This document shows, in pieces, positions 18,295 to 37,892 of a DNA stretch of 46,355 bases. The stretch comes from a bacterium. GTDB taxonomy: Bacteria > Desulfobacterota > Binatia > HRBIN30 > CADEER01. The translations under genes and the position numbers were made by a program. The notes below the pieces were generated by a model. The model was given only the letters and a program-made list of their open reading frames with translations. It searched no databases and was not told the origin of the DNA. The stretch lies in contig JBDTMT010000001.1 in assembly GCA_039934135.1 (NCBI GenBank), positions 1 through 46,355 of the forward strand, in the 5' to 3' direction. Numbering within the stretch: the first letter of the stretch is position 1; each line of letters begins with the position of its first letter.

Positions 18295-18315
18295 CGATTG
18301 GGACTTCCCCCGATG
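18295..18315 (-). promoter_or_regulatory. Island motif copy (CATCGGGGGAAGTCCCAATCG in gene orientation)
   Basis: Ends 102 nt upstream of the 18192 start and is oriented toward it. Core GGAAGTCCC shared with 36851, 37711, 37872; related core at 18526. Confidence 0.5.
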
Positions 18316-18525
18316 GCGGAGCGCGGGCGCGACACCGGCGCGCCATGACCCGATCGCGGACTGGGGTGATCTCGATCGCCACCACGCAGCTCGGCCGGCA
18401 TGTCGATGGACTCGGACGTCGGCGGGCGCCGAGCTCGCACCGCGCCGCGCCAAGTGACGGTGCTGTCTCGGCGCCCGCTCGCCGAAGTTCGGGGTCGTGT
18501 CGCGCCTGGCGGCCGGCGGCGCCAC

Positions 18526-18545
18526 ATTAGGGAAAGTCCGTATTG
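18526..18545 (+). promoter_or_regulatory. Island motif copy (ATTAGGGAAAGTCCGTATTG)
   Basis: 109 nt upstream of the 18655 start, oriented toward it. Followed by TTGTTC, 18 nt, then TAAGAA, which could be -35/-10 elements. Confidence 0.45.
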
Positions 18546-18654
18546 TTCCTTGCGGTATCCGCATCCTAAGAACGCGCCCCATGCCGCCCCATCGATACGC
18601 TGCCGAGGGCCGATCACTGCGTGCGCCGTCCCGTCGCGCGGTGAATGCGTGCGC

Positions 18655-19446
18655 ATGATGGGCGCGCTCCTACTCGGCCTCGCCGCGCTGTTCGTCGTCG
18701 TCTGCGGCTGGAAGCTGGCGCTGCTCGGCGCCGCCATCGGCCGCCTGCGCAGGGTATCCCCGCGCCGGCGCCCGCTGCTGAGTCAGGCGATTCGCGCCCA
18801 CACGCTGCATCTGCTCCTCGCCGGCGTCGGCATCGCATTGCTGCTGATGGCCGAACGGCTACCCGGCGACGTCTATCTGTATGTCGCACCTCCGCCGCAC
18901 CCGATCGCGACAGCCACCGTGGCGACACCCGGCACGCCGCCGCCCACGCCGCCGCCGACCACTCCGCAAGAAGTGCACGCGATGCGGCTGGCGCGCGAGG
19001 AATTTGTCGACTTCCCGCCCTTCGCCCCAGGGTGCGCCTGCGATGACGAGAAAGCTCGGGACGACGAGGAGACGCAGAAGGTAAAGGACCAGCGCGCGCG
19101 CTCGGTCGAGGAAATGGGCCGACGACTGGCGGCCCAGTACAACAGCAACCAGCTGCGCTTCGTGCTTGTCGTCGGCACATTCGACCACACGTCGCTGAGC
19201 CCTGAGACGAACCGCCGCTATGACAGCAACACCGCGCTGGCGCAGGAGCGAGCCGAATGCGTCGCGCAGATGCTCAGGCCACTCCTCGAGCAGAGCGCCG
19301 CGGGCGCGGACTGGGACGAGATCCTGCACACCATGGTTGCCGGACCGCAGCATGCGCGCGGCCGACATCCCACGGAGCTCTTGCGCGCCCGAGATCGCGG
19401 CGTCCGCATTCTGGTCGGCGGCGACACGGTGGAAAGCAGAGGCTGA
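18655..19446 (+). CDS. Two-TM membrane protein with Pro-rich linker and OmpA/MotB-like C-terminal domain (tentative)
   Basis: Start MMGALLLGLAALFVVVCGW (18655). Second helix LHLLLAGVGIALLLMA. PPPTPPPTTP linker. C-terminal VVGTFDHTS...YDSNTALAQERAECVAQML...RDRGVRILV resembles the OmpA-like peptidoglycan-binding pattern. The stop overlaps the next start (TGATG). Confidence 0.5.
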   Translation: MMGALLLGLAALFVVVCGWKLALLGAAIGRLRRVSPRRRPLLSQAIRAHTLHLLLAGVGIALLLMAERLPGDVYLYVAPPPHPIATATVATPGTPPPTPPPTTPQEVHAMRLAREEFVDFPPFAPGCACDDEKARDDEETQKVKDQRARSVEEMGRRLAAQYNSNQLRFVLVVGTFDHTSLSPETNRRYDSNTALAQERAECVAQMLRPLLEQSAAGADWDEILHTMVAGPQHARGRHPTELLRARDRGVRILVGGDTVESRG

Positions 19447-22208
19447 TGACCAATCCAGCACCCCGTGCGCAGGCGCATTCGTCGCGCAGCTACCTGACCG
19501 ACACGTCGACTGAACACGACCGGCTCAATTTCTACGACACCGCGGTACGGGTCGCCGCGCGTCTGTCGCACCCGTCACAGCAGACGCCGCTCAGCGTCGC
19601 CGTCCAGGGCGCGGACGGCAGCGGCAAGACGACGTTCATGCGCTTGATGCGCGCCGCGCTAAAGGAGCAAAACAGCGCCTGCTGGAGCGTGTGGTACGAG
19701 CCCTGGCGTTTCGATACGGCGCGCGATGCCTGGCGCGGGCTGGTCTACGAATTCACCGACACTGTCGGCACCCCTCAGCGTCGCGGCCGGACATGGTTCG
19801 CCTCCGCCAAGGGATTGATGGAGCGGCGCTGGTCGTACGATCTGCTGCAAGCGGTCGAGGACGATCCGGGTGGTCCGGAGGTCACGCGGCAGTTCAGACG
19901 CTATCTCGAGCGCGTCGCCCAGCGCCTGAACGGTGCGCATGGACCGGCATCGCCGCTGGTGGTGGTCTTCATCGATGACCTCGACCGCTGCACGCCGGAG
20001 AGCGCTGCGGCCGTCCTGCAGGCGTCGACGCTCTTGCTGAACAGCCGCGGATTCGTGACGGTCTTCGGCCTCACGCCGGGCGCGTTCAACTCGATCGGCC
20101 GATCGGCCGCCGCCGGTTCCGGCACCAAGACCCGGATCGCCTCGCCCGAGCGCTTCTTCCAGATCGCGTTGCAAGTGCCGACGGTCAGTCGGGCCCAGTT
20201 CCGCGCCTACGTGGACGCGTGCGTCGATCAGAGCGCCTGCCCGTTCGATCGACGCTGGACGGATGTGCTGTCCTGGGTGCTGTTCCCCAGCCCGCGTGAC
20301 GTCAAGCGGTTCCTCAACTACCTGATCTCCGAGTGGGACAAGGCGGACAGTGCCCGGTTGCTGCCGAGCGAGGCATCGATCACCGCGGGCCACTCGACGC
20401 GCCCTGGTACGAACGACCCGAGCGTCGACGATGCGACGACGGCGGCGAGTGGTACGACGCTCGGCACGACGCCGCCAACGCCGAGCCCTCGTGCCGAGGC
20501 GGCCGGCGTGCTGCGCTCGTCCGCCGACGCGGCGCACTCCCAGTTCGTCCTGCTGGCTCTGCTCACGTGGCGCTTCCCCGAGGTCGCCGACTACCTGCGT
20601 GGCGCTCAGGCCGATCCGGACGCCTTCGACCGCCTGGTCCGCGCCGCGCTGCGCGCGGATGCCGAAGATACCGGAATCGAGGTCGCTGCCCCCGGCGATG
20701 CCAAGGAGGGAAGGGAGCACGGATTCCTGGCCGATCCGGCGCTGCGTGGCCTGATGATCGATTCCTTCGGCACGGCCGAAAGGGGGGCGCATCGTCCGAC
20801 CCTTGTTCCGCCGTTCCGGTCCCCGGCCGAGCTCGGTGGCTTGTTGTTCCACTTCGGCGGTGCGCCGTCGGCGGCCGATCCGCTCAGCGGGTCGCTCGGG
20901 CCGGTCAATCCGGAATGGTCGGCCACCACGAGCCTGCAGGAGGCGCGCGACCGCAGCGCGACGCGCGGCGACATGGCGGCGGCGAAGTGGAGCGCCGAGC
21001 TGCTGCAGCGCCGCCAGTCGACCGATGCGATCGTTAGCATCCGTGCCTATCGCGAGCAGGCGCGCAACAACCAGCAGATGGGTCTGCAGGCGGAGTCGCA
21101 CAATCTGGCGAACGAGGCGCTCGCCATCGCCGCGGGCAACAAGGTCTCGGCCGGGCAACGACCGCTTGCGTATGCCGAGGCACACCTCGCCCTCGCGGAA
21201 CACTTCGCCGCCTTCTCGCCGCTCAGCTCGGCGATCGACCAGGCGCAGGAGGCATGGACCTTCGCCCTCGAGGCCAAAGAATCCAACACCCAACTGCAGG
21301 CGCTGATCGCGTTAACGTATGCGCGCAAGCTCGACTGGCAGAATACCCAGGCGATCGCGGACTGCCGGCAGGCCCTCGAGCTGGACGGCAAGACGGGTGG
21401 CCTGCGCGACGTCACGTTGCGGCTTCTGCTGGCCGAGCTGCATCACCGTCAGGCGCGCCAACACCAGCGCGAATGCAAACAGGCCGCATGGCGCGCCGAG
21501 ATCGACGCGGCACTGGCGCAGAGTGCGCTCATCGATGCTGCGATTGCCGCCGCCCCGCGCGACGAGCGCCAGCGGTACGAACGCCTACGCAGGCGGCTGC
21601 TCGACGCGCAGCGCGACGGTCTCACGGCGGATCCCAACACGCCGAGCCAGCCGGTCGCCTTCATCAGCTACGCGCACAAGAATCCGGAGCCCTTCGGCCG
21701 CGTTCGGACGATCCTCGACGCCTGGAGGGTCAGCGGAAAGTTGCACGTGTGGGAGGACACGCAGATCCAGGTCGGCGCGCTCTGGCAACTTGAGATCGAG
21801 AGCGCCCTCGAAGAAGCCACGCATGCGATCATGCTCTCGTCGCCCGAGTACGAGGCATCGGAATTCATCCGTTGGGTCGAGCGCCCGCGCATCAACTCGA
21901 TGTTCAACCGGGGCGACATCACCCTCCTCATCATTCCGCTCGGCGGGGCGGTCACCAAGTCGACGCTGAGCGGCATCCAGTTCCTGTGGCCCCAGCCGCT
22001 CGATTCGTTGGACGAGGCGCATCGCGACGAAGCGTGGAAGGGCATCACGGCGAAGCTCGAGGCCATCTTCAACCCCCCGCCTCCGGCCGGCGGAGGAGTC
22101 ACGGCCACGGCGGCGGCGGGTAGCGAGGTAGGCAACGCCGCGCCCGTCGGGTCAACCGCGTCATCGGCGCCCCCGCCGTCGTCAGACAGGCCGTCCGCCG
22201 GTGGGTGA
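19446..22208 (+). CDS. KAP-family P-loop NTPase with helical-repeat (TPR-like) middle and C-terminal TIR domain
   Basis: Start MTNPAPR (19446). Walker A GADGSGKTT. KAP signature VVVFIDDLDRC and PRDVKRFLNYL. No TM insertion. Repeat-like alpha region. C-terminal TIR: VAFISYAHK...VWEDTQIQVGALWQLEIESALEEATHAIMLSSPEYEASEFIRWVE. Confidence 0.8.
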   Translation: MTNPAPRAQAHSSRSYLTDTSTEHDRLNFYDTAVRVAARLSHPSQQTPLSVAVQGADGSGKTTFMRLMRAALKEQNSACWSVWYEPWRFDTARDAWRGLVYEFTDTVGTPQRRGRTWFASAKGLMERRWSYDLLQAVEDDPGGPEVTRQFRRYLERVAQRLNGAHGPASPLVVVFIDDLDRCTPESAAAVLQASTLLLNSRGFVTVFGLTPGAFNSIGRSAAAGSGTKTRIASPERFFQIALQVPTVSRAQFRAYVDACVDQSACPFDRRWTDVLSWVLFPSPRDVKRFLNYLISEWDKADSARLLPSEASITAGHSTRPGTNDPSVDDATTAASGTTLGTTPPTPSPRAEAAGVLRSSADAAHSQFVLLALLTWRFPEVADYLRGAQADPDAFDRLVRAALRADAEDTGIEVAAPGDAKEGREHGFLADPALRGLMIDSFGTAERGAHRPTLVPPFRSPAELGGLLFHFGGAPSAADPLSGSLGPVNPEWSATTSLQEARDRSATRGDMAAAKWSAELLQRRQSTDAIVSIRAYREQARNNQQMGLQAESHNLANEALAIAAGNKVSAGQRPLAYAEAHLALAEHFAAFSPLSSAIDQAQEAWTFALEAKESNTQLQALIALTYARKLDWQNTQAIADCRQALELDGKTGGLRDVTLRLLLAELHHRQARQHQRECKQAAWRAEIDAALAQSALIDAAIAAAPRDERQRYERLRRRLLDAQRDGLTADPNTPSQPVAFISYAHKNPEPFGRVRTILDAWRVSGKLHVWEDTQIQVGALWQLEIESALEEATHAIMLSSPEYEASEFIRWVERPRINSMFNRGDITLLIIPLGGAVTKSTLSGIQFLWPQPLDSLDEAHRDEAWKGITAKLEAIFNPPPPAGGGVTATAAAGSEVGNAAPVGSTASSAPPPSSDRPSAGG

Positions 22209-22347
22209 ACTGCGTCGTCCGTCGGCGTCTCGGCCGCACGGGGCCTCCGCCGCTGCTTCCCGCGGCCGGGCCCTCTGCCCCCCTCGTAGCGACGGAGAGC
22301 AGGCACGTCGGGAACGGGCAACGAGATCTCCGTGCGGAGCGCTGTGA

Positions 22348-23526
22348 ATGAAACTATGCTTCATTTCATACGCGAGGAACAGCAATCTCGACGGCCGGTT
22401 GACGAAGTTCGTCGAGAAGCTGCAGCAGCAACTCCCGGGGCACCTGCCTCACGGTACTAAGCCCGCCGATGTCGTGTTCTTCGATGTGATGGGCATCGAG
22501 AACGGCGACGAGTGGATGCTGCGTCTAGCGGAAGCCACGCGTCGTTGTCGGGTGTGCGTCTGCTTCTACAGTCCACCGTACTTCACGAGTGAATATAGCG
22601 GGCGAGAGGTGCAGGTGTTCCTGCAACGCGTCCATGATTGGAAGACCACGAATCCCGGGCGGGATGTGCAGGCGATCATCCCGGTCATTTGGAGACCCCA
22701 CCATCCGATCCCTGCCGTCTTGCAGGTATTCCAATACGCTCACCAGGGTCTGCCTCCCGCATACGTCGAAGACGGGTTGCACTCGCTCGCTATGCGAAAA
22801 GGCCAGCGAGACGCGTACAATAGAGTTCTCGAAATCCTTTCTGCACGGATCGCAGCTGCATTGCAGGGCGCGCCCCTACCCGATGGACCGCCGATTGCCT
22901 CGTTCGGACAGGTGGCGAGTGCATTCCACGTTGCGCCGAGCCCAACACGGTACGGTGCGTCTGTGATTCTACTCGCCACCCCGGAACGCCGGATGCAGCC
23001 ATTCGCCGCCGCGGCCGTGTCGCTCGATGTCCTGGTGGAGCGAGTTGCCAACAGAAGTGCGGTGCCGTTTCGCGAGATCAATCTCGGCGCACAGACCGCC
23101 GCCGACGTGGCTGCGTCGCAAGCCGCACGGGAGATGCCGGTGTTGGTCGCGGATCGTGCGTCGCTCAGCTCGCCACTCAACCAGCCGCTCGTTCGGGCTC
23201 TGGCGGCGACCTTTGACGCGTCTGCCACTGTGGTCGTCTTTGGCGATCCATCGCCAAATGCGTCCGATGCGGCCGCGGATCTCCGCGGTCTCATCAGCAC
23301 CGCATTCGTGCCGTGGGGCAGCGGTCTGGGATCGACGTCCTGCCTCGTGGCAACCGATCCGGCGATTTTCGAGTCGGAGCTGGAACGTCGATTGACGAAG
23401 GCTCGCCACGAGCTGATCTCGGCTGACCCGGCTGGGCGCGCTCAGCACTCCGGCTTGGAAGCGGAGGCCGCGGCTCGCGGCATCTCGGTCGGCAGTCAGC
23501 CCGTTCTGGCGAGTCCTGGTGCCTGA
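22348..23526 (+). CDS. TIR-like domain protein (FxsC-like architecture: N-terminal TIR-like domain plus uncharacterised C-domain)
   Basis: MKLCFISYARNSN...VVFFDVMGIENGDEWMLRLAEATRRCRVCVCFYSPPYFTSEYSGREV. Visibly lower GC and GC3 than flanking backbone genes. Confidence 0.7.
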   Translation: MKLCFISYARNSNLDGRLTKFVEKLQQQLPGHLPHGTKPADVVFFDVMGIENGDEWMLRLAEATRRCRVCVCFYSPPYFTSEYSGREVQVFLQRVHDWKTTNPGRDVQAIIPVIWRPHHPIPAVLQVFQYAHQGLPPAYVEDGLHSLAMRKGQRDAYNRVLEILSARIAAALQGAPLPDGPPIASFGQVASAFHVAPSPTRYGASVILLATPERRMQPFAAAAVSLDVLVERVANRSAVPFREINLGAQTAADVAASQAAREMPVLVADRASLSSPLNQPLVRALAATFDASATVVVFGDPSPNASDAAADLRGLISTAFVPWGSGLGSTSCLVATDPAIFESELERRLTKARHELISADPAGRAQHSGLEAEAAARGISVGSQPVLASPGA

Positions 23527-23527
23527 T

Positions 23528-25417
23528 ATGCCGCCACGACGAATTGTAGAGTCGGCGAAGAAAAAGCCGCGCGCGGCCGCCTCGTCCAAGAAATCGGCGC
23601 GCGCGCCCGTCGGGAGAGTCATCACTTTCTATTCCTACAAGGGGGGCACGGGGCGCACGATGGCGCTGGCCAACGTCGCTTGGATTCTGGCCAGCAGCGG
23701 CCGCCGTGTGCTGGTGATCGATTGGGACCTCGAGGCACCCGGTCTGCACCGCTACCTGCATCAATTCCTCGACGACAGCGAAGGTACCAACCGGCCCGGG
23801 CTCATCAACTTCCTGTGGGAGTTTGTCGAGGGGGCTCGCGCGCACGTCGATTCCCCGAAGACCGAGTGGTTCGCATCCTATGCGAACCTCGGGCGCTATG
23901 CCTGTTCGCTGGAGTGGGAGTTCCCGGGAGACGGGACGATCGACTTCATCACCGCTGGCCGTCAGGGTTCGTCGTATGCGTCCAGCGTCACGTCATTCGA
24001 CTGGAACGAATTCTATGAGCGGCTCGGTGGGGGAACCTTCCTGGAGGCGGTCAAGAAGAACCTACGTAGCGAGTATGACTACGTCCTGATCGACAGCCGC
24101 ACCGGCATCTCCGACAGCTCGGGGATTTGTACCATCCAGATGCCCGATGATCTGGTCGTCTGCTTCACGCTCAACACGCAGAGCATCCGCGGCGCGGCGG
24201 CGACTGCGGAATCGGCATTCCAGCAGCGCATTACCCCCAGTCGCGCACCCGGGCTGCGGGTATGGCCCGTGCCCACTCGAGTTGAGCTGGCCGAGCGCGA
24301 TCGACTGGAGCGAGCCCGCGACGAAGTGCGGGCTCGATTTCAGAGATTTCTGCATCATCTGCCAGCGAAGAATCGGGTCGCGTATTGGGGGCGGGTGGAG
24401 GTGCTGTACCAACCCTACTACGCCTACGAGGAGGCACTGGCGGTGCTCACCGACCGCCCACAGCAAGTGGGGTCGCTCTTGCAGTCGTTCGAGCATCTCA
24501 CAAGCTACCTGACCGATGGGTCCGTTGAGTCGCTCGCCAGAGGCGTCGGTCAGACGGGACGGTCGGCTCCGCTTCCACCTGTCGGAGAGGATGTGGGTCC
24601 GTTCTTCGTCAGCTACAGTCGAGCCGATGAGGAATTCGCATCACGCCTGGTTCACGCACTTCGTGACCGGCTGGGATCCGCTTCGGTACTCTGGGATCAG
24701 AATCTCCTCGCCGCGGGCGATCCCTTCGGCGAGAAGCTCGCGGTCGCCATGAACGACGCTCAGGCGGTTCTGCCACTCGTCGGTCCGTCGTACGTCGAGA
24801 GCCCGACGACCGAGAGGGAGATTGCGTACGCGCTCGCCCGCGGCTTGCGAGTCATTCCCTTGCTGCTGCCCGGCGTGACCTGGTCTGACCTCTCCGTGCA
24901 GCGCGAGCCGTTCGAGTCGCTCAGGCGATTCTACGGGTTTGAGTTTGGCAAGGGCCTGCCGTCGACGAAGAAATCCTCCGATCCGCTCCGAGTCGGGAGC
25001 GAGGGCGACGTCGACCAACTGATTGAGTTTCTCCGAACCGCGAGTAGCCGGGGACGAGGCGTGGCGGTGGCGGATCCCGACGATCCGCATCGCGGGCAGT
25101 TCGGTGGCCGCAGCGAGCGGAACGGCTTCACCCTGAGCGCCAGGGTTGCGTCGCTCAGCCGCAGCTGGTTCGAGCTCGAGCTTCGGGTGACACGGTATGG
25201 CGCGCCGACAAGCGATACAGGCGAAGTGGAATTTCATATCCATCCGACGTTCGACCCGCCGGTGCGCCGTGTGCGTGGCGGGAAAGACGGCGCAACACTG
25301 ACGCTCGAGACGTACGGAGCCTTCACGGTTGGTGCGATCGTTCTCGACTCACTCTCGATGTTGGAGCTCGACCTCTCGACGCTCAAGCAGGCGCCTAAGG
25401 TCTTTCGAGAGGGGTGA
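23528..25417 (+). CDS. ParA/MinD-like ATPase with variant Walker A (KGGTGR), fused to a TIR domain and a C-terminal pYEATS-like domain
   Basis: ATG 23528 (alternative GTG at 23519). ITFYSYKGGTGRTMALANVAWILASSGRRVLVIDWDLEAPGL. TIR: FFVSYSRADEEFASRLVHAL...VLWDQNLLAAGDPFGEKL...GPSYVESPTTEREI. C-terminus: DPHRGQFGGRSERNGFTLSARV...VEFHIHPTFDPP...LETYGAFTVGA...LELDL. Confidence 0.75.
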   Translation: MPPRRIVESAKKKPRAAASSKKSARAPVGRVITFYSYKGGTGRTMALANVAWILASSGRRVLVIDWDLEAPGLHRYLHQFLDDSEGTNRPGLINFLWEFVEGARAHVDSPKTEWFASYANLGRYACSLEWEFPGDGTIDFITAGRQGSSYASSVTSFDWNEFYERLGGGTFLEAVKKNLRSEYDYVLIDSRTGISDSSGICTIQMPDDLVVCFTLNTQSIRGAAATAESAFQQRITPSRAPGLRVWPVPTRVELAERDRLERARDEVRARFQRFLHHLPAKNRVAYWGRVEVLYQPYYAYEEALAVLTDRPQQVGSLLQSFEHLTSYLTDGSVESLARGVGQTGRSAPLPPVGEDVGPFFVSYSRADEEFASRLVHALRDRLGSASVLWDQNLLAAGDPFGEKLAVAMNDAQAVLPLVGPSYVESPTTEREIAYALARGLRVIPLLLPGVTWSDLSVQREPFESLRRFYGFEFGKGLPSTKKSSDPLRVGSEGDVDQLIEFLRTASSRGRGVAVADPDDPHRGQFGGRSERNGFTLSARVASLSRSWFELELRVTRYGAPTSDTGEVEFHIHPTFDPPVRRVRGGKDGATLTLETYGAFTVGAIVLDSLSMLELDLSTLKQAPKVFREG

Positions 25418-25423
25418 ACGAGC

Positions 25424-26599
25424 TCACGTCCTTGCGAACGGGCCGAAGTGCGTGGCGACCTCTACCTCGCGTTGGCCGACGGCGCGGCCGATGCGGCGGA
25501 GGCTGTCGATCTGATCGACCGCATCCATCTGTTGCACCGCTTCGGAACGCAGGTCGCCGCAGCCGAGCGCTTCGAGGCCGCCGGGGCTGAGGTCGGCGTT
25601 GTAGCGCACGTAGCGGAAAAGACGTTTGTGGTCGCGCGCTCCGTCCCGCTCATCCTCCGCCGGCAAGACCAGATCGCCCATCTCGCGGTCAATCTCGGCG
25701 CCGTGCACGCAGCGGCCGAAGGTGCGGCAATTCACATCCTGATCGACCTGGATGGCGTACATCAACTCGCTGGGCAGGTTCTGGAGATTGCCGAACAGGT
25801 TGCGTTGCGTGGCGTCGGTCACCCCCGCCGCCGCCCCGGTGCCGACCGAGACGAGCAGCAGGTCCGACTCGCCGGTCTTCCAGTTCAGTCGATAGGCCGG
25901 TTGCGTCGCCATGCGGAACAGCAGGAAGGCGGGGTTGTTGTACGGCGTGACGCCACCGTCGACGAAGACGCGCACGTCGTCCGGCCGCTTGGGATTGAGG
26001 CTAATGATCTCGGGTGGGAAGAAGACGGGTGCCGCCGTGCTGGCACGGACCAGCTGCCAGAGCGGGATGCGCAGATTGCAGTCGTCGCGCTCGCAGTCGT
26101 TGTACTTGGCAAAGGGGTTGCTCGAGATCGGCCACGGGGAGTCTGTGGTGATGTTGCGCGTGACGACCAGCAGCAGGCAGCGCAGTCGATCGCTGGTCAG
26201 GTCGGCGGTGCCGCCGCGTCCGTCGTGGAACACCTTGCGTAGCGTCTGTGCCAGCGGCTCGTCCTTGTAGAGGCTGCCGAGCAGCGAGGTGACGCGCTTT
26301 AGCACCGAGGTCTTGTCGAACATGTCCGCGCCCGAAGAGCGATAGAACGTGAGCAGCTCATCGGTCGACATGCCGATCGCCAGGCCGGCGGCGATGATCG
26401 AGCCGGTGCTGGTGCCGCCGATATAGTCGAAGTAATCGCCGAGCCGCTGGATACCGGTCTCGCGATCGATCTGTCGCTCCATTTCGGCGAGGATCTCCAG
26501 CGTCAGCGCGCCGCGGATGCCGCCGCCGTCGAGAGCCAGGAGCTTGCGCGTTCGCTCGGTGGCGAACCGCTCCCTCAGGTGCTGCGGCCAATCGGTCAT
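25424..26599 (-). CDS. Patatin-like phospholipase
   Basis: LALDGGGIRG oxyanion motif, GGTSTGS nucleophile elbow, FVDGGV Asp motif. Convergent with the previous gene, with a 6-nt gap. Confidence 0.85.
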   Translation of the reverse strand: MTDWPQHLRERFATERTRKLLALDGGGIRGALTLEILAEMERQIDRETGIQRLGDYFDYIGGTSTGSIIAAGLAIGMSTDELLTFYRSSGADMFDKTSVLKRVTSLLGSLYKDEPLAQTLRKVFHDGRGGTADLTSDRLRCLLLVVTRNITTDSPWPISSNPFAKYNDCERDDCNLRIPLWQLVRASTAAPVFFPPEIISLNPKRPDDVRVFVDGGVTPYNNPAFLLFRMATQPAYRLNWKTGESDLLLVSVGTGAAAGVTDATQRNLFGNLQNLPSELMYAIQVDQDVNCRTFGRCVHGAEIDREMGDLVLPAEDERDGARDHKRLFRYVRYNADLSPGGLEALGCGDLRSEAVQQMDAVDQIDSLRRIGRAVGQREVEVATHFGPFART

Positions 26600-26673: not shown

Positions 26674-26689
26674 CAATCAGGGATATCCC
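26674..26689 (-). promoter_or_regulatory. Possible degenerate island motif (GGGATATCCCTGATTG in patatin orientation; contains the perfect palindrome GGGATATCCC)
   Basis: 74 nt upstream of the patatin start. Matches GGGAAGTCCCAACTTG at 11/16 positions, with the TCCC and TTG blocks at the same spacing. Confidence 0.3.
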
Positions 26690-26770: not shown

Positions 26771-26786
26771 GGGTATTCCCCAGTTG
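26771..26786 (+). promoter_or_regulatory. Possible degenerate island motif (GGGTATTCCCCAGTTG)
   Basis: 99 nt upstream of the 26886 start, oriented toward it. Matches GGGAAGTCCCAACTTG at 12/16 positions. Confidence 0.3.
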
Positions 26787-26885: not shown

Positions 26886-28871
26886 ATGACTATCCGTCCT
26901 CATGCATTCGTCGCCATGCCGTTCGGCGCCAAGCCCACTGCCGATGGCACGCTGCTCGACTTCAATCGCGTCTATCTCGAGCTGATCCAGCCCGCGTTGG
27001 AGAGCGCGGGACTGTCGAGCTTCCGCGCCGACGAGGAGTTGCGCGGCGGCGACATCAAGACCGACATGTTTCAGGAGTTGCTGGTCGCTGACCTGGTGGT
27101 GGCGGATCTGACGATCGACAATCCCAACGTCTGGTACGAGCTCGGTGTTCGGCATGCACTGCGCGCGCGCGGTGTCGTTCTGCTCTGTGGTGGCCGGACG
27201 ACCACGGCCTTCGATCTCTATACCGATCGCAAGCTGCGCTACGGGATCGCCGACGGTGCGCCGGATGCGCGCACGCTGGAGACCGATCGCAGCCGGCTGG
27301 CGGCGATGGTCCAGGCGACGATGGAGTCGTGGCACGGTCGCAAGATCAGTCCCGTCTACCAGCTCCTGCCGAACCTACAGGAGCCGGACTGGAAGACGCT
27401 GCGCGTTGGCGACGTGCGTGAGTTCTGGGATCAGCACGAGGCGTGGGAGCGACGCGTCGACTTGGCGCGCCGGGACGAGCGCATCGGTGACCTGCTGGTG
27501 CTGGCCGACGAGGCGCCGGTCGCCGCCTTTCGCGCCGAGGCCTGGATCAAGGCGGGCCAGGCGCTGCGCAAAGCACACCTGTTTCTCTTCGCCCTCGAAC
27601 AGTTGGACCGTGGTCTGGCGATCGAACCGCTTCACATCACCGGGCTGCGGGAGCGCGGTATCTGCCTGCAACGCCTCGCGCTTATGGGACTCGCCGGCTA
27701 CTCGCTCGAGCGCGCGCGAGATCACTACCGCGACGTCCTCACGCACTATCCCAACGACCCTGAGACCTGGGCTCTCCTGGGCCGCGCCGACAAGGATGCC
27801 TGGACGGCCGCCTGGCGGCTCAAGGATCGAACACCTGTCCAACGCCGGGAGGATGCCGCCTACGAGGACGCGCTCCTGCGTGCTGCCATTGTCAGCTACG
27901 CGAAGGGCTACCGGGTCGACCAGAACCACTATTACTCGGGGATCAACGCGCTCACCCTCATGCATCTCCATGACGACCTCGTCGAAGGAGCGCGCTACCA
28001 GCGTGACTCGGAGATTATGCGCGGCGCCGTACGCTTCGCGGCGGAGGGCGAAGCGGATCGCGACCAGCTCTTCTGGGCGAAGGCCACGATCGGCGATCTC
28101 GAAGTGCTCGTTGGGACGCCCGACACCGTGCAGCAGGCATACAAGGACGCCATCGCCCTCAACGACAAGGATCCGTTCGCTCTCAACTCGGCGCGCGACC
28201 AACTGCTGATGCTGCAGGAGTTGAGCTTTCGGCCGGAGGCGGTCGCGGCGGGTATCGCCACCTTCGACCGCGCGCTCGCTCGCCTCAAGCTACCGGAGCA
28301 ACAATGGGAGCCGCGCCAGGTGTTTCTGTTCAGCGGCCACATCGTTGACGCGCCCGGGCGGCCCCAACCGCGCTTCCCAGCGAGCAAGGTCGACGCCGCG
28401 CGGCAACGGATCGCCGAGGTGTTGGATCGTCACGCCGCGGGACCGGACGACCTCGCCTACTGCCAAGCAGCCGCCGGCGGCGACCTCCTCTTTCTCGAAG
28501 CGTGTCAGCAGCGCCAGGTGCGTTACCGCATCCTGTTGCCGTTTCCCGAGGCAACGTTCCTCACTCGGTCCGTTCTGCCGTCGACCGACGGGGCGGCATG
28601 GCGCGACCGCTACTTTGCAGCGCTCGGCACCGCCGCCGCGCCGCGCATCATGCCCGACGAGCTCGGCCCGTTGCCTCAGCACGTCGACGCCTTCGAGCGC
28701 TGCAACCTCTGGCTGCTGTATAGCGCGCTCGCCTGTGGCCTCGCGCGGGTGCGTTTCGTCTGCTTGTGGGACGGCGGTGGCGGCGACGGCCCGGGCGGTA
28801 CCGCTCACATGTACAACGCGGTGTCGGCGCGCACCGGCCATGTCGATCGAATCGATGTCCACTCGCTCTGA
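26886..28871 (+). CDS. TIR-like/deoxyribohydrolase-like N-domain, TPR (DUF4071/TRAFs-binding-like) core and C-terminal SLOG-like domain
   Basis: N-terminus: AFVAMPFGAKP...VADLVVADLTIDNPNVWYELGVRHAL. Long helical-repeat middle. C-terminus: VFLFSGHIVD...AAGGDLLFLEA...LLPF...CLWDGGGGDGPGGTAHM (Gly-rich loop plus PGGxGT-like motif). Confidence 0.7.
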   Translation: MTIRPHAFVAMPFGAKPTADGTLLDFNRVYLELIQPALESAGLSSFRADEELRGGDIKTDMFQELLVADLVVADLTIDNPNVWYELGVRHALRARGVVLLCGGRTTTAFDLYTDRKLRYGIADGAPDARTLETDRSRLAAMVQATMESWHGRKISPVYQLLPNLQEPDWKTLRVGDVREFWDQHEAWERRVDLARRDERIGDLLVLADEAPVAAFRAEAWIKAGQALRKAHLFLFALEQLDRGLAIEPLHITGLRERGICLQRLALMGLAGYSLERARDHYRDVLTHYPNDPETWALLGRADKDAWTAAWRLKDRTPVQRREDAAYEDALLRAAIVSYAKGYRVDQNHYYSGINALTLMHLHDDLVEGARYQRDSEIMRGAVRFAAEGEADRDQLFWAKATIGDLEVLVGTPDTVQQAYKDAIALNDKDPFALNSARDQLLMLQELSFRPEAVAAGIATFDRALARLKLPEQQWEPRQVFLFSGHIVDAPGRPQPRFPASKVDAARQRIAEVLDRHAAGPDDLAYCQAAAGGDLLFLEACQQRQVRYRILLPFPEATFLTRSVLPSTDGAAWRDRYFAALGTAAAPRIMPDELGPLPQHVDAFERCNLWLLYSALACGLARVRFVCLWDGGGGDGPGGTAHMYNAVSARTGHVDRIDVHSL

Positions 28872-31826: not shown

Positions 31827-31827
31827 G

Positions 31828-32640
31828 ATGTCCGGACGCACGTGGGTCAGGGTGATCCTGCTCCTGTTGCTGGTGCCGCAACGCGGTGCGGCGGCGGAGC
31901 TCGTCGGCTACCTGGCCGAGTTTTCCGACGTCGTCTACTGCCCGCGCGACGCCGCGCCATTGCGGCAGAGCGAGAAGCCGCGCGATCTCCACTTTGGCGA
32001 CGCCGTGATCACGCGCGACGCGCCCGAGCGCAGCGCGGCGGCGAGAGTGTTTCTCGCCGATCGCCAGACGATCGCCATCGCCGGCAACTCCGAGCTCGTC
32101 ATCTCCGGCGTCGACACGCCCGACGGCATGCGCTCCACCAGCGTGCGACTGAACAGCGGCCGCATCCGCGTCTACGTCAGCCCGGGCGCCCACTGTCAGG
32201 TCGAGACGCCTGCCGCCGTCGTCACGTGCCGGCACACCGATTTCGTCGTCGCCGTCGATGCCAGCACCCACGCCACCGACGTCGTCGTCATCGACGGCAT
32301 CGTCGAGGTTCGCGGCGTCGGCCCGGGCGCCGACCACCCGGTGACGGTCCTGCCGTACCAGATGCTGCACGTGGCCGTCGGTGGTCCAGCGGGCCAGCCC
32401 AGCGTCGTCGGTGACGCGGCGCGCGCCCGCTACAGCGCCGGCCTGGATCTCATCGGAGACGGGACCTCCGAGCGTCTGGAGATCGGCCAGCGGCTCGCCG
32501 ATGGCAGCGAGGTGCTCACCGTCGATCGGCCGGACCCACCTTCTTCGGAGCCCTGGGAACCCGGTCCCCGTCAGGAGCAACCGGGAACGATTGCCAATCC
32601 GCTGTTTGGAGTGCCCGGCAATCTGATCGTTGACTATTGA
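31828..32640 (+). CDS. Secreted FecR-domain protein
   Basis: ATG 31828, 2 nt after the previous stop. Signal peptide VILLLLLVPQRGAAA. FecR-like core ...IAIAGNSELVISG...VRLNSGRIRVYV...VETPAAVVTCRHTDFVVAV...VVIDGIVEV. Confidence 0.6.
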   Translation: MSGRTWVRVILLLLLVPQRGAAAELVGYLAEFSDVVYCPRDAAPLRQSEKPRDLHFGDAVITRDAPERSAAARVFLADRQTIAIAGNSELVISGVDTPDGMRSTSVRLNSGRIRVYVSPGAHCQVETPAAVVTCRHTDFVVAVDASTHATDVVVIDGIVEVRGVGPGADHPVTVLPYQMLHVAVGGPAGQPSVVGDAARARYSAGLDLIGDGTSERLEIGQRLADGSEVLTVDRPDPPSSEPWEPGPRQEQPGTIANPLFGVPGNLIVDY

Positions 32641-35600
32641 GCTGGTGCGCTCCAGAGCGCCACCTTCGGCCAGGCCGCGGGTGGGTCGCTGCGCGGAGGG
32701 CGTGGGCACGCAAACATCGTGGCCGCGGCTGGCGTTGGAATGGCGCGGGACTCTTTGGATCGACGCAGCAGCTCGTCAACCGGCACGAAATCGAACCATC
32801 TGTGGATCCGAGCGGTACCGTCAGCACTCGCGGTCGCGACTGCTAGACCATCGGGGCGGAAAGCCACCTGCATCACCGGCCCCGTGTGGCCTGGTAACTC
32901 GCCGATCTCAGTTCCTGTCGCGCTATCCCAGATACGCACTCGTCCTTCCTCGTCGGCTGTAATGACCTGTGCGTTGGCGCCTGGCCGGAAGCGCGCGCTC
33001 CGCATCGGCGTCTGGGTTCTTGCCGGTCGGAGCGTTACGGCATGCCGTCCGCTGGCTACGTCCCAGATGTGCGCCCCACCGTCTGCGGCTGACGCGATGA
33101 GGAGTCGTCCATCGTCGCTGAAGGCGAGATCGTTCACGCGCCCGTTCGCGCCCGCCAGTGAACGCGAAGTGGCGGTCGGTCCCAAGCTCCAGAGCCGCAC
33201 CGCGCCATCGCTGCCGCCAGCGGCGACCAACGCATCGTCCTGCGGGCTGATGGCTGCCGTGGTGAGCGCGCCGAGATCGACGTCCGGACCCTCGTGCGCC
33301 CAGTCTGCGGCGCGCCATCGCTGCAGCATGCCGTCGGACGCGGCGATCAGGAGCGCGCCGTCATGCGCGAAGGTGACGAAGCGCAGAGTCTCGCCCGCCG
33401 CGCAGCTCACCTCTGCGATGTGCGCGCAGCTCCTAGCGTCCCAGATCGCTACCGTGCTGCCGTCATCGCCGGTTGCCAGCCATCGTCCCTGGCGATCCAT
33501 CGCGACGTATCGCAGCGCCGCCGGGCCACTGGCGAGGGGCGGCGGCGTTATCGTGGCGATCAACTCGCCCACGGCGTTCCACGCCCGCGCGGCGCCATCG
33601 CTGCTCGCGGTGAGCAGGTACTGACCGTCGTCGCTGAACACGGCCGCGTTGACGGCGTCGTCGTGCCGCATCGGTCGGCCGGCGTCGTCGGATGCCCAGA
33701 GCCGCACACCGTCATCTGCGCCGGTGGCGAGGAGATGGTCTTCGGCACTGAACGCCAGCCCCCGCACGGCCGAATCGTGTCCCGCCAGGCGGGCGATCGG
33801 TTCGCCGGTGCTCGCCTCCCAGACGATCGCCGTACCATCCGTGCTGGCGGTCGCGACGAAGCGACCGCGCGCGCTGTATTCGACCGCGGTGATCGGGCCC
33901 GTATGTCCCTTGAGGCGTATTGGTGCGTCCGGTTCCCCCCAGATGGTCGCGGTGCCGTCCTCATAGCCGCTCAGCGCGAAGCGACCGTCGGGGCTGAACG
34001 CGATATCATTTGACTGGGTGACCTTGGGCCGGCTGTCAGGCGTGAAGGCGAACTGGATCCCGGCGCCATATTCTTCGAGCTGCTGCTCGGTCAGTGAGCC
34101 GGACGTCCAGGTTCCGTCGCTCGTCCACACGCGGAGTCGATGGCCATCGATGTAGGCGAGGTGTCGACCGTCTGGGGCGAACGCCGCACTGGCGACCGGG
34201 CGGTGCTCGACGGGAAGATCCGCGATCTCGGCCCCGTCCCGCCACAAGCGCACGCCCTTGGCGCCGGCGGTGAGCACGATCGCATCATCCGGCGTCAGCG
34301 ACACCGCCTCCACGTTGTCGTCGGGATCGAGGGCCCGCGGATGGTCGCTCAGCGATATGTCGCGCACGAAGGCACCGTTCCAGGTCCCGACGACGATGAT
34401 CGGCTTGCGTGTGCCCAAGGCCACCGCCCGCACCTGGCCGGGGTCCGCCGCCCAGCGTAGTTGCCGGTCGACGGCGAGGTTGCGCCGTAAGGCCGGCGCG
34501 CCGATGGCCGGGCGCAACGCGGTCGCTTTGCGCGCCAGGCGGACGCTGTCCTGCGGCCGTCGCTCGCGCGCCGCCTCGGCGTCGCTGACCAGCTGTTGCG
34601 CGTCGGCCGTCTGCCTGGCGACATATGCGCGGATGCCCAACCAACCGGTGATCGATAGGACCACGAGCGCGCCCGTGGCCGCGGCGCCGAGGGACAGCCG
34701 GCGGCCGCGGCGGGCGCCAGCGCTGGCAGCGATGAACTGCGTTTCGACGTCGTCGAGACTGAGCCAACCGTCGCGTTGTAAGGCGCGCGCCTCATCGAGC
34801 GCACGGCCGCGGTAGAGATCCCCCGGGTCGCGTCCGGCGCAGTTCCAAAGCGCGGCGGCGGCGGCGAGCCGCGACCGCGCGCGCAGTTGCTCGCTGTGGC
34901 TCTGCACCCAGGAGCGCAGGGGCTCGAAATGCGTGATGAGCGTCTCATGGGCGAGCGTGACGCAGCTTTCGCCATTTTGGTCGGTGGCGATGAACAGGCG
35001 CGCGCCGATGAACGCGTCGATGAAGGCCCGCCGATGCGGGTCGCTCGCCAACGTCGCCATCCGCGCGTAGCGACGCTGGACGCGCTCGCCCGATGTCTCA
35101 CCGAGGGAGGGCGCGGCCGGGGAGATTTGCACGAGGTGCGCGAAGACGTCGCCAGCGGTGTTCCGGGCGGTCGGATCGAGACGGTCCCAGGTGTCGCGCG
35201 CACGCCGGTTGATCGCGCCCTCGAGGCCGCCCATCGCGTCGTAGGCGGCATGGGTGAGGACGCGGTCCGCGGTTCGCTGCGCGTACAGCGCGTCGAGCAC
35301 GAACTGCAACAGCGGGAGGTTCTGGGGCGAGGCGATGGCGTCGTCGCGCAGGCGCTCGTCCAGCAGCTGGCCGGTCTTGGGGTGCGCCTCGAAACGCAGC
35401 GCAGCCAGGCGGGCGGGCAGGCGGATCATCTGGCCGACTTCGGCGGCATCGGGCCAGCGCAGGTCGTATTGCCCGTTGCCGAGCTTGAGCTCGTCGAGTT
35501 CGGGGAGCTCGTGGCAGCGGGCATAGAAGTCGCTGCGCAGCGTCGCCAGCACGTGTACGCCACGGCGAACGAGACGATTGACGACGGCCATGAACGCCGC

Positions 35601-36800
35601 GCGCTGTTCGCGTGTGATCTGCTCGTCGAACAGCTCCTCCATCTGGTCGATCACCAGCACCAGTCCAACCTTCGGTGCCTTCAGATCGGACAGCTTGGCG
35701 CGCACCTCGTTCGCCTCCGCCGTTCGCTCATCGCGCTCGAGGCTGTCGATGTAATCGTCGATGGTTTTTGCCTGCTTCCCCCGTTCCAGTTGGCCGGCTT
35801 GCAGCAGCGACTCGCGCAACGCGCCCACCGTCTCGTCCAACGCGTTGCGCAGGCGTTCGGCGGTGACCTCGCCGGCGGCCAAACACGGGAGCGCGGTGGG
35901 TCCGATCAGTGCTTGGGCGAGTGCCGCCAGCGGGTCGGCGCCGGCTTGGCGCGGTCGCAGGATGGCGTGACGCCACACCTCGATCGCGCCGACGGCGCGG
36001 GCGCGGAAGAGGCGTGGCAGCACGCCCGCACGCAGCAGTGACGATTTGCCGCTGCCGCTGACGCCGAGGACCAGGACGAAAGGCCGGGCATCGGCCGCCT
36101 GGCGATTGAGCTGATCGAGGATGCCGGTGATGGCGCCGGTGCGGCCGAAAAAGATCGCCTCGTGCTGCAGGTCAAAGGCCTCCAGGCCGCGATATGGCGA
36201 GTCGGGCCACGGGGGGTCCTCATCCCCTCCTGTCTCCGAGACGGACAGGGCACGAGTGACCAGCTCGGTCAGGTCCTCGCCCAGGAGCTGGGCGAACTCC
36301 TGGGCACTGGCGTAGCCCTTGTAGGCACCTTTCCACGCGCCATCGTCGGTGCGAATCTGACGTTCGAGGAACGCCGTGAGGCGCTCGTGCTGCTGCTTGG
36401 CGTCCTCCCAGGTCTTGGCAGGATAGTTGACCGGGCGGCTGTTGCAGTACAGCAGCACACGCGGCGTTCCACGGGCGCGTCCAGCCTCCAAGGCGGTCTC
36501 GAGCTCATAGGCCGTGCCCGACTCGTAGCGCGTGCCGTCCGCCCGCTTGTAGCGGTCCCCTGTCAGTGGCGTGCCCATGCGGCTCCAGACGACTCCGACG
36601 ACGATGTCGCAGGAGGCCGCTTCGCGTAGCGATTCCTGCGGAGCCTTGGCCGCTTCCAACGGCTGCGATTCCCAGAAGTACGATCCGATCGTCGCCTGGT
36701 TGGCGAACTCCCGGCCGAGTTGCTCGATGACCCGTCGCGCTTCCTCGCGCTCGACGCGCACGTCGCTCGGTGAGGAGAGGAAGATGCTGAATTTCCGCAT
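32634..36800 (-). CDS. DUF4062/TIR-like N-domain, STAND-type P-loop NTPase (nSTAND-like), single TM helix and WD40 beta-propeller repeats
   Basis: ATG 36800 (alternative GTG 36818). FSIFLSSPSDVRVEREEARRVIEQL...CDIVVGVVWSRMGT...GTAYELETAL. Walker A GVSGSGKSSLLRAG, Walker B LVLVIDQMEELF. Hydrophobic helix LGAAATGALVVLSITGWLGI. Many GH...W(D/E) WD40 units to the C-terminus. Confidence 0.8.
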   Translation of the reverse strand: MRKFSIFLSSPSDVRVEREEARRVIEQLGREFANQATIGSYFWESQPLEAAKAPQESLREAASCDIVVGVVWSRMGTPLTGDRYKRADGTRYESGTAYELETALEAGRARGTPRVLLYCNSRPVNYPAKTWEDAKQQHERLTAFLERQIRTDDGAWKGAYKGYASAQEFAQLLGEDLTELVTRALSVSETGGDEDPPWPDSPYRGLEAFDLQHEAIFFGRTGAITGILDQLNRQAADARPFVLVLGVSGSGKSSLLRAGVLPRLFRARAVGAIEVWRHAILRPRQAGADPLAALAQALIGPTALPCLAAGEVTAERLRNALDETVGALRESLLQAGQLERGKQAKTIDDYIDSLERDERTAEANEVRAKLSDLKAPKVGLVLVIDQMEELFDEQITREQRAAFMAVVNRLVRRGVHVLATLRSDFYARCHELPELDELKLGNGQYDLRWPDAAEVGQMIRLPARLAALRFEAHPKTGQLLDERLRDDAIASPQNLPLLQFVLDALYAQRTADRVLTHAAYDAMGGLEGAINRRARDTWDRLDPTARNTAGDVFAHLVQISPAAPSLGETSGERVQRRYARMATLASDPHRRAFIDAFIGARLFIATDQNGESCVTLAHETLITHFEPLRSWVQSHSEQLRARSRLAAAAALWNCAGRDPGDLYRGRALDEARALQRDGWLSLDDVETQFIAASAGARRGRRLSLGAAATGALVVLSITGWLGIRAYVARQTADAQQLVSDAEAARERRPQDSVRLARKATALRPAIGAPALRRNLAVDRQLRWAADPGQVRAVALGTRKPIIVVGTWNGAFVRDISLSDHPRALDPDDNVEAVSLTPDDAIVLTAGAKGVRLWRDGAEIADLPVEHRPVASAAFAPDGRHLAYIDGHRLRVWTSDGTWTSGSLTEQQLEEYGAGIQFAFTPDSRPKVTQSNDIAFSPDGRFALSGYEDGTATIWGEPDAPIRLKGHTGPITAVEYSARGRFVATASTDGTAIVWEASTGEPIARLAGHDSAVRGLAFSAEDHLLATGADDGVRLWASDDAGRPMRHDDAVNAAVFSDDGQYLLTASSDGAARAWNAVGELIATITPPPLASGPAALRYVAMDRQGRWLATGDDGSTVAIWDARSCAHIAEVSCAAGETLRFVTFAHDGALLIAASDGMLQRWRAADWAHEGPDVDLGALTTAAISPQDDALVAAGGSDGAVRLWSLGPTATSRSLAGANGRVNDLAFSDDGRLLIASAADGGAHIWDVASGRHAVTLRPARTQTPMRSARFRPGANAQVITADEEGRVRIWDSATGTEIGELPGHTGPVMQVAFRPDGLAVATASADGTARIHRWFDFVPVDELLRRSKESRAIPTPAAATMFACPRPPRSDPPAAWPKVALWSAPAQ

Positions 36801-36850
36801 GTCGTTGGGTGGCCGCACGCCACCGGCATCGGCCCGCGCTCCGCCGCCGT

Positions 36851-36870
36851 CAATTGGGACTTTCCCGTAG
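36851..36870 (-). promoter_or_regulatory. Island motif copy (CTACGGGAAAGTCCCAATTG in gene orientation), abutting a TTGACG -35-like hexamer
   Basis: 50 nt upstream of the ATG at 36800, oriented toward it. The TTG of the motif is part of TTGACG (36848-36853, minus strand). Confidence 0.5.
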
Positions 36871-37021: not shown

Positions 37022-37702
37022 ATGATCACGCGCCGTGAAACCCTGCGCCAGCTGCTGATCGGCACAGTCGGGCTATTCAGCGCCGCGGGCTGTGCCAGAC
37101 TGAGCGCCGAGGCACCCTCCATGGCCGCGTCGTCCTATCGCCGGGTATTTCTTTTCAGCGGGCATATGATCGACGCAGCGGGCCGCGCCACGCCGCGCTT
37201 TCCGGCCGACAAGGAGGCGATCGCCGCCGCCGCCATCGGCGCCGCGCTCGACGCTCGCGGCTGCGGCGGCGGCGACCTCGGCATCTGCGGCGGGGCGTGC
37301 GGCGGCGATCTGCTGTTCGCCGAGGCGGTGCTGGCGCGCGGCGCGCACCTCCAGCTGCTGCTGCCGTTCGACGAGCAGACGTTCCTGAGCGAGTCGGTCG
37401 ATTTCGCCGACGCCGGGTGGCGGCCGCGGTTCTTCGCCGTCAAGCAGAAGCCGCACACCGTGACGCAAGTCGCTCCCGAGGCGCTCGGGCCGCTGCCGCC
37501 GGGTGCCAACCCGTACGAGCGCGAGAATCGCTGGCTCCTCGATACGGCGCTCGCCCACGGTGCCCAGCGACTCGACTTCATCTGCCTGTGGGACGGCGGC
37601 GGCGGCGACGGTCCCGGCGGCACGCGCCACATGGTTGAACAGGTCGAAGCGGCTGGCGCCCACGTCACCTGGCTGGATACCCGCACGCTCTGGACGGTCT
37701 GA
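37022..37702 (+). CDS. Tat-signal lipoprotein consisting of a stand-alone SLOG-like domain (paralog of the C-terminus of 26886..28871)
   Basis: ATG 37022 after GGAGGG. MITRRETLRQLLIGTVGLFSAAGC (twin-Arg plus lipobox). VFLFSGHMID...ACGGDLLFAEA...LLLPF...CLWDGGGGDGPGGTRHM aligns block for block with residues ~470-660 of the 26886 protein. Confidence 0.65.
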   Translation: MITRRETLRQLLIGTVGLFSAAGCARLSAEAPSMAASSYRRVFLFSGHMIDAAGRATPRFPADKEAIAAAAIGAALDARGCGGGDLGICGGACGGDLLFAEAVLARGAHLQLLLPFDEQTFLSESVDFADAGWRPRFFAVKQKPHTVTQVAPEALGPLPPGANPYERENRWLLDTALAHGAQRLDFICLWDGGGGDGPGGTRHMVEQVEAAGAHVTWLDTRTLWTV

Positions 37703-37710
37703 TCGATCGT

Positions 37711-37731
37711 CTACGGGGAAGTCCCAACTTG
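37711..37731 (+). promoter_or_regulatory. Island motif copy (CTACGGGGAAGTCCCAACTTG)
   Basis: Lies in duplication copy 1, 8 nt after the SLOG gene stop. Confidence 0.45.
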
Positions 37732-37871
37732 TCCGCTCCCTTGCCTGTGGGACGGCGGCGGCGGCAACGGTCCCGGCGGCACGCGCCACATGGTTGAACA
37801 GGTCGAAGCGGCCGGCGCCCACGTCACCTGGCTGGATACCCGCACGCTCTGGACGGTCTAGATCGGATCGT

Positions 37872-37892
37872 CTACGGGGAAGTCCCAACTTG
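37872..37892 (+). promoter_or_regulatory. Island motif copy (CTACGGGGAAGTCCCAACTTG)
   Basis: Lies in duplication copy 2. Ends 54 nt upstream of the SARP gene ATG (37947) and is oriented toward it. Confidence 0.5.

Follow-up and report, generated by a model that had tools for sequence, protein, structure and literature searches.

The stretch of DNA analysed here (46,355 nucleotides, hereafter 'the window') comes from a bacterium of the Binatia, on a metagenomic contig with a GC content of 68%. Domains of the conflict or defence type are clustered in it, namely three TIR domains, a KAP NTPase (QatA/PifA-like), an nSTAND1-WD40 protein, a patatin, two TPR-S domains, pYEATS, CHAT and caspase, and by this clustering the region is a defence/conflict island. 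Our subject is a short sequence, 'the box', with the core GGRAAGTCC, that stands upstream of several transcription units of the island, one of which encodes a regulator of the SARP family. A sequence-only reading of the window had pointed to the motif as common to otherwise unrelated modules, and we do find a real directional element abutting a -35-like hexamer; judged on its sequence and conservation, it is very probably a genuine promoter-proximal regulatory element. Sites, putative promoters and candidate target genes are given below, with scores from a weight matrix trained on eight strong sites (four independent sites of the window and four from orthologous loci).

37947..38927, plus strand: gene of the SARP-family regulator (326 aa; winged helix-turn-helix (wHTH) and BTAD), the candidate binder of the box.
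37872..37919, plus strand: proximal SARP promoter (26.7 bits), with box CTACGGGGAAGTCCCAAC (core 37876-37885), -35-like TTGTCC at 37890-37895, an 18-nt spacer and -10-like TAGCCA at 37914-37919.
37711-37731 and 37872-37892, plus strand: two copies of CTACGGGGAAGTCCCAACTTG, the 37872 copy ending 54 nt before the ATG at 37947.
37711..37734, plus strand: distal SARP-side box with TTGTCC, a product of tandem duplication.
37583..37902, plus strand: tandem duplication of about 160 bp (units 37583-37741 and 37742-37902, 98% identical).
36851-36870, minus strand: nSTAND1-WD40 box CTACGGGAAAGTCCCAATTG, 50 nt before the ATG at 36800.
36825..36870, minus strand: nSTAND1-WD40 promoter (28.5 bits), with box CTACGGGAAAGTCCCAA (36854-36870), -35-like TTGACG at 36848-36853, a 17-nt spacer and GATGCC at 36825-36830.
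32634..36800, minus strand: nSTAND1 NTPase with WD40 repeats, a boxed gene.
18295..18315, minus strand: box CATCGGGGGAAGTCCCAATCG (23.7 bits), 102 nt before the 177-aa gene at 18192.
17659..18192, minus strand: 177-aa protein with a basic tail and a beta-rich domain, a boxed gene.
18526-18545, plus strand: box ATTAGGGAAAGTCCGTATTG, 109 nt before 18655.
18526..18572, plus strand: OmpA-like/KAP operon promoter (23.8 bits), with box ATTAGGGAAAGTCCGTA, -35-like TTGTTC at 18543-18548, an 18-nt spacer and TAAGAA at 18567-18572.
18655..25417, plus strand: boxed operon encoding an OmpA-like protein (263 aa), KAP NTPase-TIR, TIR and ParA-TIR-pYEATS.
26771..26786, plus strand: weak box variant GGGTATTCCCCAGTTG, 99 nt before the TPR-S/SLOG-like gene 26886-28871, the first of the X-TPR-FecR genes.
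26674..26689, minus strand: weak box variant GGGATATCCCTGATTG, 74 nt before the patatin gene 25424-26599.

Reading each site directly, we recovered all the coordinates, sequences and start-codon distances that the sequence-only reading had listed. Its remark that the copies are intergenic and point at the adjacent gene also stands: all window sites fall within non-coding DNA, which makes up 8-12% of the window on a provisional gene map, and every box reads GGGRAAGTCC toward the nearer gene (14 aligned sites, window and related loci). The alignment consensus is T-A-n-GGG-R-A-A-G-T-C-C, then 3-4 nt, then TTG. The suggestion that the trailing TTG opens a -35-like hexamer was borne out as well, TTG being present at offset 3-5 past the core in 10 of 12 distinct boxes (the 14 aligned sites minus the duplicated copy of the window and the distal copy of the related locus L001), and for this reason it is counted as part of the element. 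The 18295 box has TCG in place of TTG, with ATAGCG 18 nt past the hexamer. Further downstream, 17-18 nt past TTGnnn, comes a TAnnnn-like hexamer (for example TAGCCA, TAAGAA, ATAGCG, TAGATG, CATAAG or TACTGC); GATGCC is a poorer fit to this -10-like pattern. The composite element can thus be written T-A-n-GGG-R-AAGTCC-N3/4-TTGnnn-N17/18-TAnnnn, with the GGGRAAGTCC core ending 3-4 nt before the TTG hexamer and about 27-28 nt before the conserved TAGCCA. In the window the SARP ATG lies 27 nt past TAGCCA, and for the nSTAND1-WD40 gene an alternative in-frame GTG start is possible at 36818. These promoters are putative, their -10 hexamers being assigned from conservation alone. A strict sigma-70 scan gave no match in the three boxed intergenic regions; if promoters, they would be weak, and the lack of a canonical sigma-70 promoter fits what is expected of activator-dependent ones.

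The core GGRAAGTCC has five exact matches in the window against 0.44 expected, a count that was reached in none of 100 dinucleotide shuffles. The five window copies score 23.7-28.5 bits with the weight matrix, and the orthologous sites 22.8-29.2 bits. Scanning the window revealed no further site at or above the reporting threshold of 9 bits, a level at which shuffled windows give 1.7 matches, and the best non-site match, among the close-relative and syntenic loci listed, reached 11.4 bits. What had been counted as five strong copies comes down to four independent sites and one duplicate, because the 37711 and 37872 copies stem from the tandem duplication, whose unit comprises the box, TTGTCC and, before them, ~118 nt from the 3' end of gene 37022-37702; no -10-like element stands behind the distal copy. 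As to the two weaker sites (26771 and 26674), their coordinates were right, their significance comes from position and orientation only, and the one before patatin is not kept in the related locus L009. Independent sites are alike over about 20 nt only, after which similarity stops, so that the box is not a dispersed repeat; a REP or MITE element was ruled out by this short similarity and by the position of all copies upstream of, and facing, genes.

Orthologous SARP loci were recovered from Logan assemblies, at 70-72% protein identity (L001, L002-L004 and L009) and at 51% (L005-L008). In each of the five diverged lineages so obtained, whose SARP proteins are 51-72% identical to that of the window, a box precedes the SARP transcription unit. 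Among the four closer ones, no change is seen in the box, ACTTG or GCTAGCCA; the 18-nt spacer and the 5' untranslated region differ, and the ATG begins anywhere from 27 to about 85 nt past TAGCCA. Conservation of the box amid diverging flanks marks it as a phylogenetic footprint of a promoter rather than of an RNA or translational element. A caspase-SARP pair in L005 is preceded by the variant GGGGAATCCCGAATTG. L001 (1416-1449) carries two boxes 17 nt apart, the result of an independent local duplication; two separate lineages have therefore each duplicated the box that precedes SARP. In L001 (12.5 kb), L002, L005 and L009 the promoter of the SARP unit is the only boxed promoter.

Two further loci, L093 and L094, were retrieved independently through the nSTAND1 protein (66-68% identity) and are syntenic. 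Box variants precede the orthologous X-TPR-FecR operon in both, with the same architecture: TTAGGGAAAGCCCTAATTTCAT in L093 (18.3 bits) and TAAGGGATTTCCCTAGCTTGCCA-N18-CATAAG in L094. The nSTAND1 promoter TTGACG-N17/18-(T)GATGC is kept in the window, L093 and L094. By these comparisons the box is clade-specific, fixed at the SARP promoter and fluid at other targets. Two other features of L093 may be recorded. At 3653-6316 (minus strand), near the nSTAND1 locus without a box, a Trans_reg_C fragment, an AAA_16 open reading frame (ORF) and a TPR_MalT ORF stand in a row and could be a frameshifted large AfsR-like regulator, through a long-read assembly error or as a pseudogene; and at 9836-9857, past a short-chain dehydrogenase remnant and about 85 nt upstream of the nSTAND1 -35, lies a perfect palindrome, TTGGACCCCCGAGGGGTCCAA, which is probably a terminator.

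Beyond the clade, a genome scan with the SARP alignment gave 80 loci at 38-48% identity (1.22 Mb; Acidobacteriota, Chloroflexota and others). The box was never found at the SARP promoter of these 80 loci, where the strict core occurs at the background rate (9 in 1.22 Mb). A metagenome scan with the SARP protein returned three distant or partial loci only, none with a box, and a search for locus-specific repeats shared by distant SARP promoters and their surroundings yielded only noise and low-complexity GC matches. The k-mers enriched upstream of distant SARPs were a ribosome-binding site, TATAAT, CTCTTG and CCCTCGCA. CTCTTG(G/T) is present in 16 of 77 distant loci and CCCTCGCA in 12 of 77, against about 3 and 1.6 expected, in the 200 nt 5' of the SARP homologues (L013-L092; for example L073 at ~9944-9975, L076, L037 and L082), in several loci downstream of a TATAAT-like -10. 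These two sequences may form a conserved 5' leader of the distant SARP subfamily; as counterparts of the box they were rejected, since they resemble such a leader feature.

The protein encoded at 37947-38927 matches Pfam BTAD (1.6e-26) and, weakly, Trans_reg_C (0.0029), and aligns with EmbR (2fez) at an E-value of 4.4e-12 across residues 3-258, that is, over both domains. A match to the NCBIfam model BagI/FevR (3.4e-07) is below cut-off. Its AlphaFold model (pLDDT 85.5) has as top Foldseek matches EmbR and the SARP domain of AfsR (8k60, 8hvr), with TM scores of 0.77-0.83 by target length. Both its predicted architecture, an OmpR-type wHTH followed by BTAD, and its modelled fold place it in the SARP family. 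The closest relative, P0002 (87% identity), comes from JGI sample 3300075153, and among distant relatives the nearest named ones are from metagenome-assembled genomes of Acidobacteriota and Chloroflexota, at no more than 48% identity. No other island protein has a recognisable DNA-binding domain.

We propose a composite promoter element of which the box is the upstream half, adjoining a retained, weak -35 of the sigma-70 type; if TAGCCA is the -10, the 13-bp box would span about -53 to -40. An activator bound there would recruit RNA polymerase to promoters too weak to act alone. The island SARP (37947-38927) would bind the box and activate its own gene, in positive autoregulation, together with at least three further units: nSTAND1-WD40, the 177-aa gene and the OmpA-like/KAP-TIR/TIR/ParA-TIR-pYEATS operon. 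Patatin and TPR-S might be targets as well. We favour the SARP as binder because it is the only regulator in the island and its promoter is the invariant boxed site, and an invariant site in a regulator's own promoter is the usual criterion for assigning a motif to a transcription factor. That the island's autoregulated SARP binds the box is, on the sequences and the structural model, about an even bet; both the identity of the binder and the sign of control, activation rather than repression, are what we infer. A wider reading is more tentative, and we hold it with some doubt: a SARP outside the actinomycetes would control an immune regulon as its master switch and, from a single non-canonical box joined to the -35, drive its own gene and unrelated conflict modules (TIR-KAP NTPase, nSTAND1-WD40, possibly patatin and TPR-S/SLOG-like), with targets rewired fast between relatives and the autoregulatory site fixed.

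A number of observations weigh against the SARP as binder. Described SARP sites consist of at least two direct repeats 11 or 22 bp apart, of which the 3' one is separated from the -10 by 8 bp; the afs box runs from -40 to -19, centred at -29.5, where it overlaps or replaces the -35 (PMC10936776). At our sites, in contrast, there is a single 13-bp box, from about -53 to -40, before a -35 that keeps its TTG; at 11 or 22 bp downstream the sequence shows neither similarity to the box nor conservation, and, given the putative -10, no 3' repeat stands 8 bp from it, overlapping the -35 or spacer. The geometry does not seem to be that of the class II activators named in the sequence-only reading (a 22-bp dyad centred at -41.5), nor is it the canonical one of SARP sites (direct repeats at 11 or 22 bp; PMC10936776). 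Tandem boxes occur only at spacings of 17 nt in L001, which is off helical phase, and 161 nt in the window duplication. A direct-repeat reading, GTCC ... GTCC 10 nt apart, was discarded, as it applies to the SARP promoters only and coincides with the -35. Since it lacks two defining features of SARP boxes, the element is best described as an activator-like box at a putatively SARP-controlled cluster and not as a canonical SARP box. The expectation that the motif be conserved in orthologous islands held for the SARP promoter, as the block box-TTGnnn-N17-18-TAGCCA, and failed for orthologues of three other target promoters: the box is absent from the nSTAND1 promoter of L093, where -35 and -10 are retained, from the promoter of the L095 gene homologous to the 177-aa gene (72% identity), and from the orthologous patatin promoter of L009. 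Nor is there a box at the caspase/CHAT operon promoter beside the SARP gene of L001. Co-occurrence of SARP and box is in part a matter of construction, because the loci that show it were retrieved through the SARP itself. L093 and L094 have no SARP gene within 10 kb of their box variants, or in the 12-23 kb retrieved. Finally, the putative recognition helix, [KR]K[YN]LRQ[ATS]LW, is invariant throughout the SARP subfamily, including the distant members without the box.

Some of these points would be expected if the box were the operator or activator site of a regulator encoded elsewhere in the genome, with the SARP gene as a conserved target of the cascade; such a regulator might control conflict islands throughout the lineage, or it might be a repressor that reads the GGGA-N2/3-TCCC pseudo-dyad as a dimer. 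Such an origin would account for the box variants far from any SARP gene, for a geometry unlike that of described SARP sites, and for a clade-specific box in spite of an invariant recognition helix, and the core is indeed partly dyad-symmetric, GGGATATCCC, GGGATTTCCC and GGGGAATCCC being more palindromic. The dyad is not conserved, however, since GTCCT or GTCCG is found in L001, in L009 and at 18526; all sites share a single orientation, which a symmetric dimer site would not need, and a repressor would not usually sit upstream of the -35. Moreover, in our assessment no other DNA-binding protein is encoded in any of the loci, and only at the SARP promoter has the site persisted throughout the five lineages. 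We consider an unlinked regulator less likely than the SARP, yet a serious rival.

Two other explanations fare worse on the sequence features of the sites. An alternative sigma factor, of the extracytoplasmic function (ECF) type or another, could read the box as an extended or alternative -35, as might be suggested by its fixed orientation and spacing relative to the downstream hexamers, by the GGAA that it shares with many ECF -35 elements, and by the gene with a FecR (anti-sigma-like) domain in the island. What is conserved downstream of the box, however, is TTG at +3/4 and TAGCCA at ~29 nt, a distance too great for one sigma factor; the spacing from box to TTG varies by 1-2 nt, and neither the window nor the related loci contain a sigma gene. 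An ECF promoter (GGAAC-like -35 with a CGT/GTC-type -10) was rejected, nothing being conserved 16-18 nt past GGAAG where its -10 is expected, as was a sigma-54 promoter (TGGCAC-N5-TTGC, -24/-12), for which the distance from GG to TTG is at least 2 nt too long and variable, and GC does not follow TTG at most sites. Because nothing is conserved at the ECF distance and the sigma-54 spacing is wrong, we rate this explanation as very improbable. It is scarcely credible that the box has no regulatory function and arose by chance, as a relic of duplicated promoter cassettes or as a small repeat element: two of the five copies do come from local duplication, and L001 has its own, but the independent sites are alike over some 20 nt only, the box is conserved in five lineages while its flanks diverge, its enrichment is strong, confined to non-coding DNA and consistent in orientation and spacing, and there is no Rfam match. 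An RNA or DNA hairpin was also dismissed, a 4-bp stem with a 2-3-nt loop being implausible and spacing and conservation also speaking against it.

Several neighbours of the box deserve description. The SARP gene is convergent with the gene of a 1870-aa DUF7379-LCAT-CHAT-TPR-S protein and with caspase. A convergent giant DUF7379-(LCAT)-CHAT-TPR-S gene accompanies SARP in four lineages, its product 33-77% identical to that of the window, the pairing being recorded at 38927-39063 in the window, 2480-2483 in L001, 2210-2250 in L005 and 1499-1669 in L003; the pairing is conserved, though the CHAT/caspase operon promoter of L001 lacks a box. Immediately 5' of SARP, in the window (37022-37702), L001 and L002-L003, a 226-aa protein is encoded, of which L004 has a 36-residue fragment only. 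It has a paralogue in the C-terminus of the TPR-S protein 26886-28871 (window 28240-28871), which is 48-52% identical to the L001 and L002 orthologues of the 226-aa protein. Its signature, GxCGGD...GGGDGPGGT, is SLOG/TIR-like in appearance, and the protein has no match in Pfam, NCBIfam, PADLOC or PDB. The annotated N-terminus in the window resembles a Tat or lipoprotein signal that the L001 orthologue does not have.

The 177-aa protein combines a disordered N-terminus rich in Lys, Arg and Pro with a beta-rich domain of about 105 aa, which belongs to a family of stand-alone proteins of ~125 aa (49 representatives, E<=0.001) and weakly resembles Fn3/PKD repeats; its closest homologue, P0242 (80% identity), is from JGI sample 3300075153. 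As an alternative DNA binder it was set aside, its model being beta-rich, of low confidence (pLDDT 46) and uninformative. The KAP NTPase-TIR protein (920 aa, 19446-22208), whose N-terminus is matched by defence models for QatA, PifA and PDC-S20, had no relative at a strict E<=1e-40 among 5.8 billion clustered proteins. Apart from the boxed island, a tRNA-Ser(tga) at 8443-8530 is followed by a stretch of lower GC (8600-10800, 0.60) with an ORF for a Phd/YefM-type antitoxin, and this region may be an integration hotspot.

In most descriptions, defence islands are sets of independent modules, and the few regulators of such islands that we know of each act on a single adjacent system. If the proposal is right, bacteria could induce a multi-system immune response (TIR, STAND, patatin, SLOG-like) as a unit through one island activator, a coordinated transcriptional response instead of constitutive, module-by-module expression. 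It would also extend SARPs, known as activators of actinomycete antibiotic clusters, to immunity in other phyla, with a different geometry of DNA recognition. The box would provide a sequence handle for further co-regulated, unannotated conflict genes in this uncultured lineage, for which the 177-aa and 226-aa proteins, both without family assignment, are candidates; it would offer a useful and testable lead, derived from sequence, on how transcription might be coordinated across an immune island of several modules. In the literature searched we found no report in which a SARP or BTAD regulator is tied to a defence or conflict island. Such regulators go unmentioned in two eLife surveys of these conflict systems, and a 2026 survey of STAND proteins cites AfsR only as a non-immune STAND.

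Compared with the SARP systems (AfsR/afs box, ActII-ORF4, DnrI, EmbR), the likeness lies in the candidate regulator, with wHTH and BTAD and the same fold, in the poor core elements of the target promoters, in a directional site that adjoins the -35 region, and in the location of the regulator within the gene cluster under its proposed control. Those SARPs that have been characterised activate transcription and make up for poor promoters (PMC10936776). Beyond site geometry, the present case differs in that the genes proposed to be controlled are of the immune or conflict type, not for antibiotic biosynthesis, and that the host is not an actinomycete. Class II sites such as those of CRP and FNR resemble the box in abutting or overlapping the upstream edge of the -35, in partial dyad symmetry and in the polymerase recruitment proposed here; they are, however, 22-bp dyads bound by symmetric dimers, centred near -41.5 and used in either orientation, whereas the box has 10-13 bp, an imperfect dyad that is asymmetric in several copies, one orientation and an inferred centre at about -45/-46. 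The 10-bp pseudo-dyad is short for two HTH domains. A further likeness is to an NF-kB site: GGAAAGTCCC (window 36856-36865) is the exact reverse complement of GGGACTTTCC, the classical Ig-kappa NF-kB site, and the L005 and L094 variants GGGGAATCCC and GGGATTTCCC also fit the NF-kB consensus GGGRNWYYCC. This is almost certainly coincidental, though curious amid TIR, caspase and STAND genes.

The comparison may be extended to CapW/BrxR (WYL-type) and to sigma adaptation of the PafBC type, with which the present case would share a regulator beside immune genes and a short promoter site coupling the expression of defence genes to a signal. CapW/BrxR and PafBC are WYL-domain proteins and mostly repressors of one adjacent system. 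PafBC, as it is cited in PMC10936776, acts at promoters with suboptimal -35 elements. Unlike these WYL-type regulators, the regulator proposed here would be a SARP-type activator that couples several unrelated modules.

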